From a bacterium (lineage in GTDB: Bacteria; Patescibacteriota; Patescibacteriia; PEXW01), in assembly GCA_030689605.1 (NCBI GenBank), contig JAUYFT010000001.1, positions 1-47,785 of the forward strand: a DNA stretch of 47,785 nucleotides. Direction: 5' to 3'. The translations under genes and the position numbers were made by a program. Numbering within the stretch: position 1 is the first letter of the stretch; each line of letters starts with the position of its first letter. Under the pieces are notes generated by a model. That model was not told the DNA's origin. It saw only the letters and a program-made list of their open reading frames with translations, and ran no database searches. This document shows positions 28,932-47,785 of this stretch, one piece after another.

Positions 28932-29438
28932 ATGAACCCCTACCACAATCCACCACACCTGTACCTTGATCAATCACTATACTTTGTAAGTGCGAGAACA
29001 TTCGAAGCCCAGCTGTACCTTAAAGATGGTACACGTAAACAATTGTTCGTTAAAAAGTTAAATGATTTGCTGCAAGAGTATCAGTATAAACTTTATGCCT
29101 GGGTTGTGCTTGATAATCATTACCACCTTATCTTTGAGACGAACCAGGGTGCCAAGTTGCCGAAGTTCATGCAAGCATTGCACGGCGGCACCTCTCGCGC
29201 ATTGAACCTTATGGATGGTATCGAAGGCCGGAAGGTATGGTTCAACTACTGGGATCGTTGTTTACGGGATGACGTGGATTTCAATACTCATTGCGATTAC
29301 ATTCATTATAATCCCGTAAAGCATGGTTTTGCAGAACATCCCGAAGATTACCCATTCTCAAGCTATAAAGATTTCTTAAAAAGAAAATATTATGAAATAG
29401 GTTGGGGGTACGCGGAACAAAGAATATTGAAAAATTGA
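28932..29438 (+). mobile_element. REP-associated tyrosine transposase (RAYT, Y1 HUH superfamily)
   Basis: YAWVVLDNHYHLI HUH motif, YWDRCLRD, YIHYNPVKHG catalytic Tyr, YPFSSY; flanked by GTAG REPs. Confidence 0.92.
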
Positions 29439-44680: not shown

Positions 44681-45265
44681 ATGCCTACGATTTCCGTTGC
44701 CGATATCCAAGCACTCCGCGAACGCACTGGCGTGGGTATGCTCGATGCGAAAAATGCTCTCGAAGCAGCAAGTGGCGACATTGATGCTGCGGTGACTACC
44801 CTTCGGAAATCTGGACAGAAGGTTGCGGAGAAGAAAGCTGCCCGGGTGACGCGGGAAGGCGTGGTGGGGGTGTACGAGCATAGCAACAAGAAGCTTGTGG
44901 CCGTAGTTGCCGTGGCGTGTGAGACAGATTTTGTTGCCCGGACAGAGGATTTTCAAACCTTGGCGCATGAGCTGGCGATGCACGTCGCGGCAGCCGCACC
45001 GACATACCTTACGGCTGCGGATATCCCCGCTGATGTCCTGGCCACGGAAGAGGATATTGCGCGCAGCCAAGCTAAGGGCAAGCCGGAGAAGATCCTCGCG
45101 TCTATCATTCAGGGGAAATTGAAGAAGTACGCCGAGGAGCACTGCTTGATGGAGCAAAAGTTCTTCAAGGATGATACAAAGACGGTCAGCGGTGTTGTTC
45201 AAGAAGCCATGCAGAAGCTCGGCGAGAACATCCAGGTTAAGGAATTCGTTCGTTTAAGCGTGTAG
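44681..45265 (+). CDS. tsf: Elongation factor Ts (short form)
   Basis: LRERTGVGMLDAK, CETDFVAR, LGENIQV. Confidence 0.96.
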   Translation: MPTISVADIQALRERTGVGMLDAKNALEAASGDIDAAVTTLRKSGQKVAEKKAARVTREGVVGVYEHSNKKLVAVVAVACETDFVARTEDFQTLAHELAMHVAAAAPTYLTAADIPADVLATEEDIARSQAKGKPEKILASIIQGKLKKYAEEHCLMEQKFFKDDTKTVSGVVQEAMQKLGENIQVKEFVRLSV

Positions 45266-45268
45266 CCC

Positions 45269-46159
45269 ATGCTCACCGATTGGATATTCCTAGGAGTATT
45301 TGGTGCCTGCGTGGTTACCTGCGCGGTGGTAGTGTGGCGGAAGTTGCCGCAGCTGGCGAGTATCCGTACGGACGCTATCCCCAAGCACCAACAACAAGCT
45401 CGAAAGCAGCAGATCTTGGATAAGCGCCTTCAGCAGAAGCTCGGGAATGCCGAAGCGGCCATTGTGAGAACGCTGACCAAGGGCTTTCAAGGAATGTGGA
45501 GCGGACTTCAGGTGCTGCTTCGCCGTTTGCGTGAACTTGAACGTGAGTACCGGCGCAAAGTAGTCACCCAGCAATCCATAGAGAATCCCGAAGTGCTGCG
45601 TTCTCGCCTCGCGACCGGGCTCGCCGACGCGCAGACGGCCATGGCGGCTGAAGACTTTCCTCGAGCCGAACAGCTCTTTGTAGATATCGTTGCCCTCGAT
45701 CCGAAGAACGTCGAAGCGTATATTGGGCTTGCGGATGTGGCCATGGCGAAAAAGGATTATACGAATGCCCGTGAGGCACTCCAGTTCGTGCTCAAGCTCC
45801 AGCAGGGGAATGATTCGGTTTATACTCGGCTCGGCCGCATTGCGACTGATGAAGGGAAATTCTCCGAAGCCGAAGCAGACTATCTTAAGTCTGTTAGCTT
45901 GAATGCGTCGACCGCTACCGCACAGTTTGAACTGGCAAATATTGAAGTGAAGCTTGGCAATGTAGAGAAAGCCCAAACTGCCTTTCAAGAGGCGGTTAAG
46001 CTTGAACCGGCAAACCCAAAGTACCTGGATGCATTGCTCGCCTTCGCTATCCAGCATACTCGTAAGGACATCGCCCGTGAAACGCTAGCACGGCTCCGCG
46101 AGGCAAATCCAGAGAATCAGAAATTACCCGAACTTGCAGAAGCCGTGAAGAAGTTGTAG
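45269..46159 (+). CDS. Membrane-anchored TPR protein
   Basis: N-terminal TM; TPR motifs LDPKNVEAY, LEPANPKY. Confidence 0.85.
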   Translation: MLTDWIFLGVFGACVVTCAVVVWRKLPQLASIRTDAIPKHQQQARKQQILDKRLQQKLGNAEAAIVRTLTKGFQGMWSGLQVLLRRLRELEREYRRKVVTQQSIENPEVLRSRLATGLADAQTAMAAEDFPRAEQLFVDIVALDPKNVEAYIGLADVAMAKKDYTNAREALQFVLKLQQGNDSVYTRLGRIATDEGKFSEAEADYLKSVSLNASTATAQFELANIEVKLGNVEKAQTAFQEAVKLEPANPKYLDALLAFAIQHTRKDIARETLARLREANPENQKLPELAEAVKKL

Positions 46160-46181
46160 TGTTGTACGTTCTCAATTACAT

Positions 46182-46250
46182 GCCGTTGTAGTCCCGTCCC
46201 GCGCTAGCGAGACGAGGATCCTCGATCCCTTCGGGATCGGGAATCAGCGG
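46182..46250 (+). pseudogene. Possible decayed 5' fragment of tRNA-Thr interrupted by a double TCCCG/CGGGA hairpin
   Basis: GCCGTTGTAG|insert 46192-46242|ATCAGCGG resembles GCCGATGTAGCTCAGCTGG. Confidence 0.4.
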
Positions 46251-46291
46251 AATCGAACACACAAGTACGTTACAGTTTTTCCAAATCGTAT

Positions 46292-46367
46292 GCCGATGTA
46301 GCTCAGCTGGTAGAGCAACTCCATGGTAAGGAGTAGGTCGCCGGTTCAATTCCGGCCATCGGCTCCA
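46292..46367 (+). tRNA. tRNA-Thr(GGT)
   Basis: GCCGATG/CATCGGC acceptor, ACTCC-ATGGTAA-GGAGT anticodon arm, TTCAATT T-loop, CCA. Confidence 0.95.
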
Positions 46368-46546
46368 TGAACCACTCGCTTCGCTCGGGTTCATGGCGAG
46401 CCACGTATGTGTACAAGGCTTGCCTGAATATAAAGTGCTAATGTGGTTCATGCCCTGCACCGGAGTCCCGTCCGCGGGACGACTGGTACAGGGCAGCCCC
46501 GCAGCCTCGCTTGACCCCAGGGAAATCTGACAATTTTGGAAAATTT

Positions 46547-46842
46547 TCCGGAGTAGCTCAGTGGTAGAGTCCCGATCTGTGAAGCAGATCGAGGATGCAC
46601 GATAGCCCGATGGGCTATCGGCACAACGCTTTTGTCCCGCTCGTTTGCTGCTATCATGAAGGCAGACGCGGGATCCTCGTAGTTCTTCAAAATCTTGCCG
46701 GAGTAGCTCAGCTGGTAGAGCAACGCTTTGGTAAAGCGAAGGTCGGGGGTTCGAGTCCTCTCTCCGGCTCCATCGGCAAGATTTTGTAAGAACTTCGGGA
46801 TAAAGCGAAGGTCGTCCCGCCACGGCGGGACGGGTGGCTCCA
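46547..46842 (+). pseudogene. Outer, fragmented tRNA-Thr(TGT)
   Basis: Pieces 46547-46569, 46624-46634, 46801-46814 and 46832-46842 separated by hairpin inserts; T-loop and part of the 3' acceptor strand deleted. Confidence 0.8.
46697..46772 (+). tRNA. tRNA-Thr(GGT), nested inside the Thr(TGT) remnant
   Basis: GCCGGAG/CTCCGGC acceptor, loop TTGGTAA, TTCGAGT T-loop, CCA. Confidence 0.93.
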
Positions 46843-46870
46843 CTCATTATTCCTCTCTAATACCTATTGT

Positions 46871-47026
46871 ATGTCCCAAGACAACCTGATCCACCTGGAG
46901 TGCACGGTTTGCAAGCATGTGAACTACCATTCGAAGAAGAATAAGAAGACGCTTAAAGGTCGATTAGCATTGAAGAAACACTGCACCTGGTGTGGCAAGC
47001 ACACCTTGCACAAGGAAACGAAGTAG
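46871..47026 (+). CDS. rpmG: 50S ribosomal protein L33 (zinc-binding form), not in the ORF track
   Basis: [51 protein letters not shown]. Confidence 0.95.
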
Positions 47027-47038
47027 TTTTCCACGCCT

Positions 47039-47290
47039 GGGGGAATAATTCATCGGTAGAACGACGGTCTCCCCGCCTGCCGGAGTACAGGGATAACATT
47101 AAGTCGTTAGTTGATGGGGGCGTAGTTCAACAGTAGAACTTCGGTCTCCAAAACCGGTAACGAGGGTGCGACACCTTCCGCCCCCGCCAACTAGCGACAA
47201 TAATGCTGTACAAATTGAAGGAAAATATTTACTTCGTACGGCGGGCAGTCAAAACCGTAGAGGAGGGTTCGATTCCTTCTGCCCTCGCCA
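47039..47290 (+). pseudogene. Outer tRNA-Trp(CCA) split at the anticodon by a 178-nt insert
   Basis: 5' half 47039-47072 plus 3' half 47251-47290 rejoin to ACGGT-CTCCAAA-ACCGT with GAGGG-TTCGATT-CCTTC and CCA; one acceptor and one D-stem mismatch. Confidence 0.85.
47116..47189 (+). tRNA. tRNA-Trp(CCA), nested inside the outer tRNA-Trp
   Basis: GGGGGCG/CGCCCCC acceptor, TCGGT-CTCCAAA-ACCGG, T-loop TGCGACA, CCA end. Confidence 0.9.
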
Positions 47291-47558
47291 GTACTGCAGG
47301 TGCCTGGTAGGGGCGCATGCAGGATCATGTGGAAAATGGAATCGAACGGGTGCGAGCGAGCGTAGCACCCCGGCCCGAAGGGCGATTCCTTCTTCCCCCG
47401 CCAGCTCTTTTCCCGAAATTTCATTTGGGGGATTTCCCGAAAAAGCTTTAGATTTTTCGTACTCCGTGTATGCGGAGTGTGCCGCATTGAGAGAGAGGAT
47501 TGCCTCCGCCATCTCGCTACGCTTGAGCGGACAGGCTTGCCTAAAGAAAATAAGTACG

Positions 47559-47606
47559 CTTGCCCGTCCGTAGTCCACCCCGGGTGGACGTAGGCGGGCG
47601 GGCAAG
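47559..47606. repeat. REP-like GC-rich hairpin
   Basis: CTTGCCCGTCCG..GTCCACCC/GGGTGGAC..CGGGCGGGCAAG. Confidence 0.7.
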
Positions 47607-47646
47607 GAACTCCCAAATCATTGACTTATTAGTGAAAAATTTATAT

Positions 47647-47785
47647 AAGACCCACTGCCCAAACCCCATTCCGCCAGACACCTCAAAGCGGGTGCTTGCT
47701 TGATTTACGCGTGCCGCAGATTGTAGAGACCTACCACCGTCTTGAAGATATCATTGTAATCGGAGAGGGTGCTCCTGAATCGGTG
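47647..47785 (-). mobile_element. Probable end of an IS5/ISL2-like (DDE_Tnp_4) element with partial transposase C-terminus (47705-47785)
   Basis: Minus frame HRFRSTLSDYNDIFKTVVGLYNLRHA*; TA-AGACCCACTGCCCAAA could be the terminal IR. Confidence 0.45.

Follow-up and report, generated by a model that had tools for sequence, protein, structure and literature searches.

A tRNA-Thr gene nested in the anticodon loop of an older copy suggests serial gene replacement by a two-hairpin cassette in a Patescibacteria genome

Anticodon loops of tRNA genes are known integration sites of tyrosine integrases, and the integrative elements that target tRNA genes, often at the anticodon loop, restore the gene they enter with a partial copy that they carry. 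The REP/BIME palindromes, which belong with RAYT transposases, and the Rickettsia palindromic elements (RPE) are short, GC-rich, often paired and scattered, also within open reading frames (ORFs) and RNA genes; we know of no description of a nuclease gene or a tRNA borne in the loop of a REP or RPE element. The principle of destroying a gene while supplying a spare copy of it is known from engineered gene drives. Here we analyse the right end of a stretch of 47,785 nt (the window), contig C28 of a Patescibacteria genome (G000; 644,183 bp in 33 contigs, 55% G+C, completeness 83%, contamination 2%), where an intact tRNA-Thr gene lies inside the remains of an older tRNA-Thr(UGU) copy (46547–46842, the Thr nest). 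Our reading, which we consider probable, is that this locus is the fossil record of a serial replacement of the sole tRNA-Thr(UGU) gene by a selfish two-hairpin cassette, present here in a form without an ORF.

The free-standing GIY-YIG homing endonuclease SegB, from the tRNA gene cluster of phage T4, is described as recognising the T-psi-C stem-loop motif and as driving the inheritance of its own gene together with the neighbouring tRNA genes (PMC2330249). The tRNA-Thr(GGU) locus of Caldiarchaeum subterraneum is described as having a 5′ fragment, inserts in several places and, separating the fragment from the working gene, a mobile element, a layout read there as a recent gene disruption by a mobile element (PMC3293823). 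GIY-YIG ORFs also occur in the insertion sequences of rRNA genes of candidate phyla radiation bacteria, in a report in whose main text the word “tRNA” does not appear (PMC11270868). Within open-access papers and bioRxiv preprints, we found neither an account of one tRNA gene nested in another in bacteria nor one of a selfish element carrying a spare copy of a bacterial tRNA gene. The cassettes described here resemble SegB in that their sister cassettes at other tRNAs also pair a GIY-YIG ORF with a tRNA gene. They differ in that SegB is a phage enzyme with an added DNA-binding region, whereas the proteins here have 80–110 aa and only the catalytic domain, in that they sit inside a copy of their own cargo gene, bounded by two stem-loops, and leave nested dead copies behind, and in that the Thr cassette has no ORF at all. 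New in the present locus are a tRNA-bearing cassette at Thr(UGU) that lacks an ORF, an insertion site at nt 35/36 that is used more than once, a co-varying leader–trailer helix and an anticodon change, together with a motif that ties cargo-less double hairpins to nuclease-bearing cassettes.

All parts of the nest lie on the forward strand (in what follows, ^ marks an insertion point or junction). The outer, dead Thr(UGU) copy opens at 46547–46569 with its positions 1–24; BLAST of the inner tRNA against its flanks aligned positions 2–24 with 46548–46569 (95.7% over 23 nt), and base 1 is T, not G. The D-loop of this piece, AGTGGTA, is that of the un-nested Thr(UGU) genes of two relatives, G006 and G002. 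Between positions 24 and 25 lies insert 1 (46570–46623), a minimal double hairpin without cargo (TCCCGATCTG..CAGATCGAGGA, then TGCACGATAGCCC..GGGCTATCGGCA), which bears at 46588–46603 the junction motif of a wider hairpin family, ATCGAGGA^TGCACGAT. The outer copy resumes with positions 25–36 (CAACGCTTTTGT, anticodon TGT; 46624–46635), to be interrupted by the cassette itself (46635–46800). Stem-loop 1 of the cassette (TCCCGCTCGTTTGC..GCAGACGCGGGA; 46635–46674) holds no ORF, is kept in G003 and partly in G005, and shows U-A/U-G changes in its stem. Stem-loop 2 starts with a leader arm (TCCTCGTAGTTCTTCAAAATCTT; 46675–46696), which pairs with the trailer arm (46773–46800, ending in CGGCAAGATTTTGTAAGAACTTCGGGA) and with the first tRNA bases, and encloses the intact inner tRNA (46697–46772), whose body is of the Thr(UGU) family and whose G34 (window base 46730) makes it read as Thr(GGU). 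Beyond the cassette follow the outer 3′ piece with positions 36/37–49 (TAAAGCGAAGGTCG; 46801–46814; BLAST 100% over 14 nt against positions 36–49), a GC hairpin in place of the T-arm (TCCCGCCACGGCGGGA; 46815–46830; like CCCCGCCACGGCGGGG of G003 and TCCCGCGGCCGCGGGA of G009), and the acceptor 3′ strand plus TCCA of a GCCACCC-type Thr(UGU) gene (CGGGTGGCTCCA; 46831–46842), which is unpaired with the outer 5′ strand. No ORF matching GIY-YIG lies within 46547–46842.

The inverted repeats described in an earlier first-pass annotation, made from the letters of this DNA, are real, with arms that match at 80–100%: 46688–46707 with 46767–46786 (20 nt, 85%), 46678–46692 with 46783–46797 (15 nt, 80%), and CGATAGCCC/GGGCTATCG and CGTCCCGCC/GGCGGGACG (both 100%). 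The leader–trailer duplex around the inner tRNA reaches a ΔG of −38.0 kcal/mol (z −8.3 versus shuffles), and the fold of the whole 296 nt −142 kcal/mol (z −7.05), none of 200 shuffles being as stable. Three further claims of the first-pass annotation hold, namely that an intact tRNA is nested in a hairpin-bounded insert within the anticodon loop of an older Thr(TGT) copy, that its anticodon is GGT (ARAGORN and Infernal), and that an A-A mismatch, A27–A43, sits atop its anticodon stem, as it does in the orthologues. Its count of three inserts stands for two of them: excising 46570–46623 gives back ..GGTAGAG^CAACGC.. exactly, and excising 46635–46800 gives back ..TTTTG^TAAAGCG.. exactly, a repeated T leaving the boundary ambiguous by one base (35^36 or 36^37), whereas 46815–46830 replaces the T-arm (GGTCG–hairpin–CGGGTGGCTCCA in the window versus GGTCG–TCGGTTCGAATCCGA–CGGGTGGCTCCA in G003). 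The picture of one tRNA hit three times also fails at the acceptor stem, since the outer strands GGGTGGC (3′) and TCCGGAG (5′) pair at 3 of 7 positions only and the 3′ strand fits the GCCACCC-type Thr(UGU) gene of G003, so that the outer pieces derive from no fewer than two earlier generations of the gene. Nor are the inserts copies of a single TCCCG/CGGGA repeat: insert 1, stem-loop 1 and both arms are each single-copy in the 644 kb, and only the hairpin that replaces the T-arm has relatives elsewhere in the genome (95% match at C18:17628–17648).

The position of the nest is conserved. ARAGORN and Infernal/Rfam agree on three tRNA genes at this end of the window, Thr(ggt) at 46292–46367 (71.1 bits), the inner Thr(ggt) at 46697–46772 (64.7 bits) and Trp(cca) at 47116–47189 (57.1 bits), and rpmG (L33; 46871–47026, forward strand) anchors the orthologous slot. 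Among the 14 loci of relatives that contain rpmG, 12 have a Thr(tgt) directly before it, one has a Thr(cgt), and in G007 no tRNA was called. The inner gene, with acceptor strand GCCGGAG and anticodon stem ACGCT/AGCGA including A27–A43, is near-identical to the Thr(tgt) of G006 and G002 except at position 34. By sequence and slot, it is the orthologue of the relatives' only Thr(UGU) gene, and the comparison with orthologous loci makes G34 private to G000. Acceptor stems of Thr(UGU) vary between species of one genus (GCCGGAG, GCCGGTG, GCCACCC), beside the first Thr(GGU) gene (46292–46367, forward strand, upstream of the nest), whose sequence is identical in all six genus-level copies.

The junction of the nest, ..TTTTG^TCCCG.. 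with stem-loop 1 followed by the leader–tRNA–trailer helix and ..CGGGA^TAAAG.., is present in G003, G005, G009 and G011. G000 and G003 have the junction ..ACGCTTTTGT^CCCGC..GCGGGATCCTCGTAGTTCTTCAAAATCTT^GCCGGAG.. in common (alignment A1), and stem-loop 1, TCCTCGTAGTTCTTCAAAATCTT and the GCCGGAG copy of G003 are nearly base-for-base those of the window, with T at the anticodon position. The GCCGGAG copy of G003 has lost its T-arm to the CCCCGCCACGGCGGGG hairpin, and a newer GCCACCC gene lies downstream. In G005 the GCCGGAG copy survives with its two helix arms, and a second cassette of the same layout interrupts it at TTTTGT^..^AAAGCG; this one comprises a stem-loop and a GCCGGTG Thr(tgt) between arms of unrelated sequence (CCAGAACCCTCACAATTTC/GAAATTGCGATGGTTCTGG). 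G011 and G009 belong to a different genus of the family; there, a GCCAGCG gene with a third arm pair sits in the same layout, with the same ends (TTTTG^TCC.. and ..TTCGGGA^TAAACCG). The G009 copy has been superseded in turn, its T-arm replaced by TCCCGCGGCCGCGGGA while its acceptor halves still match. The three sequence-unrelated arm pairs all form strong helices (ΔG −38.0, −37.4 and −27.2 kcal/mol; z −8.3, −7.2 and −7.8), whereas four un-nested control tRNAs have none (leader–trailer z +0.2 to +1.3). The target is reused as well: insertion after nt 35/36 of the Thr(UGU) anticodon loop is found for cassettes A (G000, G003 and G005), B (G005) and C (G011 and G009), and insertion after nt 35 also in the tRNA-Trp nest of the window and in two Ala cassettes (L056, L092). 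A pattern scan of metagenome contigs for the cassette-A leader gave a single match, identical over 927 nt to the G005 locus and therefore not independent evidence.

The exact excisions could also be those of a live intron, the outer copy being an active interrupted Thr(UGU) gene whose inserts are removed from the RNA, with the inner tRNA processed from the middle “intron”; this would solve the ACA puzzle discussed below. The outer copy indeed retains its UGU anticodon, inserts 1 and 2 excise without a base lost or gained, the region folds far better than shuffles, and the co-variation of the arms together with the tolerance of U-A/U-G changes in stem-loop 1 hints at selection on an RNA or single-strand helix. 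We nevertheless hold this explanation to be very improbable. The outer copy has no T-arm, its base 1 is T and its acceptors pair at those 3 of 7 positions, so that the exons rebuild no complete cloverleaf; the outer copies are truncated differently in G003, G005, G009 and G011; and an intact copy lies beside every broken one. Profiles for the tRNA-intron endonuclease (PF01974) and the RtcB ligase (PF01139) gave no matches in the 644 kb, which are 83% complete. Rfam contains no intron or ribozyme family that matches 45000–47785, where we found only three tRNAs and two sub-threshold chance matches; a group I intron gave no covariance-model match in the same interval, and 166 nt, of which 76 are tRNA, would also be too short for one. 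The intron mode of ARAGORN reported no such gene at the locus, only implausible long-intron calls that were discarded. The Caldiarchaeum locus is alike in being a tRNA-Thr locus with a 5′ fragment, multiple inserts and disruption by a mobile element, but the archaeal inserts are introns of live genes, spliced by way of a splicing endonuclease, whereas the broken copies here cannot fold as tRNA, a complete gene is nested in them and no splicing enzyme was found in the 644 kb.

An integrase-borne element of the classical kind, integrated in the tRNA gene and later deleted down, would account for the choice of an anticodon loop, and in G007 a candidate of this kind stands nearby: an ORF whose C-terminus looks tyrosine-recombinase-like by eye ends just upstream of a truncated Thr(GGU), a 3′ fragment (locus L002, flipped coordinates 300–890), and no Thr(UGU) is called there before rpmG. 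The G007 locus resembles a classical integrase event at the neighbouring tRNA. For the Thr nest such an origin is most unlikely. The integrative elements and the cassette are alike in having a tRNA as target and in supplying sequence that keeps a working gene, but the insert of ~166 nt contains neither an ORF nor a recombinase remnant, it carries the whole tRNA instead of the 3′ part, and it leaves the 5′ half and 3′ remnants behind where a direct repeat of the tRNA 3′ part would be expected and is missing. Moreover, the same compact layout is conserved in five genomes, and none of the 41 genomes searched has an integrase-bearing island with these junctions.

From this anatomy we infer insertion as the process and the following order of events. 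A two-hairpin cassette, with stem-loop 1 bounded by TCCCG..CGGGA and stem-loop 2 holding a complete tRNA-Thr in a loop closed by the leader–trailer helix, would insert after nt 35/36 in the anticodon loop of the resident Thr(UGU) gene, so that a single insertion would both kill the resident and provide the working copy. The dead halves would then decay; a cargo-less double hairpin of a related family would enter the D-stem, and a GC hairpin would take the place of the T-arm in the dead outer copy. Recombination or deletion between layers may finally have left 5′ and 3′ pieces of different generations; with AAAGCGAAGGTCG segments repeated in successive layers as its substrate, such recombination would explain why the outer halves do not match. 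The agent would most likely be a small GIY-YIG nuclease acting in trans, since full-size members of the family carry the gene for one and the ORF-less Thr cassette is then most likely non-autonomous.

The family link rests on the junction motif ATCGAGGA^TSCACGAT (16 nt, one mismatch allowed), which occurs in 19 of 301 genomes of the class, against 2 genomes for a reversed-pattern control. We fetched 23 other motif loci. A tRNA lies within 500 nt in 11 of them, and in 9 of those 11 a tRNA-Ala adjoins the motif; a GIY-YIG ORF lies within 600 nt in 9 loci, and no fewer than 4 are doublets that lack cargo but share the ends. Six (L080, L082, L083, L088, L096, L100) have no hairpin by the one-mismatch motif and look like chance matches. 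In full-size members, hairpin 1 encloses the gene of a small GIY-YIG nuclease and hairpin 2 a tRNA. In L056, TCCCGAT.. and ..ATCGAGGA flank the ORF, and TCCACGAT.. and ..ATCGGGA flank the tRNA. The exact counterpart of the window's Thr nest is L092, where a cassette lacking an ORF interrupts an outer tRNA-Ala after G35. Approached from the nuclease, 16 of 32 small GIY-YIG loci in the 41 genomes have a tRNA within 400 nt, mostly 30–125 nt downstream on the same strand; 9 of these 16 have a 5′ fragment of the same tRNA upstream, and 5 of the 9 also a 3′ fragment beyond the tRNA. One such nested locus is the Leu(UAG) of G000, on contig C12, with a protein of 84–90 aa, a bare GIY-YIG catalytic domain; the other sister cassettes with the ORF are at Ala, Glu, Gln, Lys, Met and Trp of relatives. 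The pattern is wider than single loci: by BLAST 8 of the 27 tRNA genes of G000 have fragments of the same type nearby, the Trp nest of the window being a ninth, and in 13 of 71 evaluable Patescibacteria species, selected solely because they share the Thr(UGU) arm exactly, fragments of Thr lie no more than 250 nt away.

Several observations weigh against serial replacement by a mobile cassette. No GIY-YIG ORF was found in or beside the Thr(UGU) nests of G000, G003, G005, G009 and G011, so that the nuclease link depends on sister cassettes at other tRNAs, and the ends of the Thr cassette, TCCCGC..GCGGGA^TCCTCG..TTCGGGA, merely resemble those of the Ala family, TCCCGAT..ATCGAGGA^TCCACGAT..ATCGGGA. 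An ORF enclosed by inverted repeats was detected in 4 of 31 GIY-YIG loci by a crude test that skipped one long ORF; that stem-loop 1 is an emptied nuclease hairpin is accordingly a weak suggestion, which comes mainly from L056 and the tRNA-Ala loci. Across the phylum, only 1 of the 71 evaluable Thr(UGU) loci has a leader–trailer helix above threshold, so that this type of helix is not general. We found no pair of an empty and a filled site within any one species. Cassettes A and C, from genus 1 and genus 2 respectively, might go back to a single old insertion inherited vertically, which would leave two to three independent events and not four, and the outer pieces of G000 do not fit any single history. 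Finally, RAYT-like Y1 transposases could be the movers of the hairpins in place of the nuclease: G000 has three genes of this type (Y1_Tnp, PF01797), in the window at 28932–29435 (forward strand), at C17:12912–13457 and in an ORF at about C33:6338–6508 (reverse strand).

These transposases are also the starting point for an explanation by passive decay, in which tRNA genes were duplicated in tandem, the extra copies were neutral, REP-like palindromes landed in them by way of RAYT-like Y1 transposases, and no site-specific, tRNA-carrying cassette existed. Besides the three Y1_Tnp genes, this explanation has in its favour the Tyr locus of G000, a tandem row of broken copies, and the spread of GC hairpins over the genome, where we counted 234, 213 of them more than 400 nt from any intact tRNA, including 30-nt doublets within long ORFs and a copy in 5S. 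The remaining 21 are an enrichment near tRNAs over the 6.2 expected, in a set of hairpins that are not mutually independent. G000 resembles the REP/BIME–RAYT systems in its scattered, often paired GC palindromes and its RAYT-like genes, but differs in that the hairpins of the nest are unique sequences with only ends and format in common, where REP elements form repeat families of many near-identical copies, and in that the loops of some family members here hold a nuclease gene or a tRNA. The RAYT-like gene of the window is itself flanked by hairpins of another type, AGAGACTTTAGTCTCT, and not by TCCCG hairpins. Passive decay also leaves without a cause that an identical anticodon-loop junction recurs with unrelated arms and different tRNAs, that both halves of the split copy in G005 flank the insert exactly, and that leader–trailer helices occur only around nested tRNAs and in none of the four controls. 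We therefore judge it unlikely.

The inner gene poses a decoding puzzle, which had been noticed at first sight: two Thr(GGT) genes and no Thr(TGT), with ACA and ACG codons in normal use. This extends to the assembly as a whole, in which 27 tRNAs were called and neither a gene nor an arm for Thr(TGT) or Thr(CGT) was found elsewhere in the 644 kb (83% complete). In each of the five relatives compared, Thr(TGT), Thr(GGT) and Thr(CGT) are represented by exactly one intact gene apiece; their Thr(CGT) adjoins Gly(CCC) a few kb beyond Trp, and the contig of the window ends ~600 nt past Trp. In 378 long ORFs, ACA accounts for 1294 (11.9%) and ACG for 3784 of 10,830 Thr codons, with 4 ACA codons in tsf and 3 in prfA, and the inner copy as assembled would leave one Thr codon unread. 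The G at 46730 (T34>G) is private to G000, the copy of the same cassette in G003 reading T. A scan of 185,579 species genomes found the T form of the 27-nt arm in at least 120 species representatives and the G form in none, and the exact 31-mer with G34 gave no match in metagenome contigs, these collections possibly omitting the records of the window's own genome. G34 is best explained as a later, private single-base change in the inner copy, either real or a consensus error or variant; if real, a Thr(UGU) gene must lie in the unassembled 17%, and a newer cassette copy there that carries Thr(UGU) would fit the pattern.

The uniqueness of this G raises the question of an assembly artefact, in which the nest, or only the G, arose from a mix of strains, collapsed copies or a consensus error. 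The turning of a sole Thr(UGU) into GGU should be lethal at such a share of ACA codons, and the sequences at hand from other samples do not have the G: contigs from four sequencing runs, which represent mixed relatives, read T or C at 46730, and contig X2 (record 15) covers 46665–46733 with a single difference, from a run without G depth at this base. These contigs leave 46590–46623 and 46794–46861 uncovered. Among public sequencing runs, none contained more than 0.17 of the sampled words of the stretch. For the nest, however, the junctions recur in G003 and G005, which were assembled independently, and 46624–46726 is spanned by a contig of a different sample; for the G, the flanking bases are specific to the inner copy, which excludes a chimeric path through the first Thr(GGT). 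Taken as a whole, the artefact is hardly credible.

A more far-reaching version of serial replacement, which we put forward as tentative, joins these elements into a natural cleave-and-rescue system acting after nt 35, run by a TCC..GGA-bounded two-hairpin family. Autonomous members would combine a GIY-YIG nuclease made of the catalytic domain only, in hairpin 1, with a complete cognate tRNA as replacement in hairpin 2; entering the anticodon loop of the cognate gene, they would destroy their target and rescue the host at one stroke. The ORF-less Thr cassette and the cargo-less 46570–46623 would be derivatives resembling miniature inverted-repeat transposable elements, which might seed unique GC hairpins in dead tRNAs, rRNA and ORFs, and the leader–trailer helix would be the structure read by the nuclease or by an RNA-processing enzyme. 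T34>G, next to the insertion point, might then be an escape from re-invasion, tolerated through a newer Thr(UGU) in the unassembled part. If serial replacement holds, essential tRNA genes of these bacteria with tiny genomes would turn over by invasion and not by point mutation, which would account for the variable acceptor stems of Thr(UGU) within a genus beside the invariant Thr(GGU); the cassette would act selfishly, destroying a gene of which it brings its own spare copy, and the orphan GC hairpins of Patescibacteria genomes would be tied to a nuclease-bearing parent. In practice, nested tRNA loci are missed or miscounted by tRNA finders, and an anticodon change within a nest can mimic an unreadable codon.

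A second nest, of tRNA-Trp, lies to the right of rpmG at 47039–47403. Its outer 5′ half (47039–47072) ends after C35, and an insert of ~178 nt holds the intact Trp gene (47116–47189), whose leader–trailer duplex has a ΔG of −18.4 (z −4.6). The outer 3′ part extends to 47290, and another 3′ remnant, at about 47330–47403, comes after a GGGTGCGAGCGAGCGTAGCACCC hairpin and a copy of its own T-loop in inverted orientation. A reading of 47237–47290 as a tRNA with a TCA anticodon was rejected, since this segment continues the outer Trp copy on the 3′ side of the insert at position 35. The nest is kept in G007, G009 and G011, while other species of the genus have different Trp genes. Position 55 of the T-loop is a near-universal U in tRNAs; the sole intact tRNA-Trp of G000 has an odd T-loop, UGCGACA, with G at position 55, and the equivalent gene of G007 was missed by ARAGORN. 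Around both nests (46100–47785), a scan for promoters and terminators gave a site count no higher than in shuffles.

Further nested or broken tRNA loci of G000 are found at C2:2640–4060 and C18:18390–18822 (both reverse strand) and at C14:9000–9260. Pro(UGG) and Ile(GAU) are nested in older copies, the outer Ile acceptor still matching itself (GGGCGCG/CGCGCCC), and a 3′ remnant of Lys carries as its cap an exact, inverted repeat of its own T-loop and stem. Tyr of G000 and Thr of G003 and G005 have a D-loop module, GGGTGCGACCCATYGGGAGCACCC, in common. At C25:2590–2665 (reverse strand), a tRNA-Lys(CTT)-like sequence uncalled by ARAGORN has an intact body and 3′ end; its 5′ acceptor strand resembles that of the adjacent tRNA-Arg, so that it looks like a chimeric pseudo-tRNA. 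The 30-nt double hairpins (TCCGCCnnnGGCGGA–CCCGCCnnnGGCGGG) lie within open frames as long as 2655 nt, which stay unbroken, and in a 5S-rRNA-like sequence, usually after TT (C2:19390–19419, C5:10176–10205, C8:13538–13567, C11:11987–12016, C12:50509–50538). Lastly, a dispersed element of ~130 nt starts from the CCA end of tRNAs with CCATGAACC..GGTTCATGGCRAGCC, followed by a second long hairpin; it occurs in the window at 46365–46505, and at C12:45163–45201, C14:9073–9111, C20:20693–20725 and three places of C33. It follows Thr(GGU) in the window, Leu, Lys and Gly elsewhere in G000, and in G006 it follows Thr(UGU) instead.

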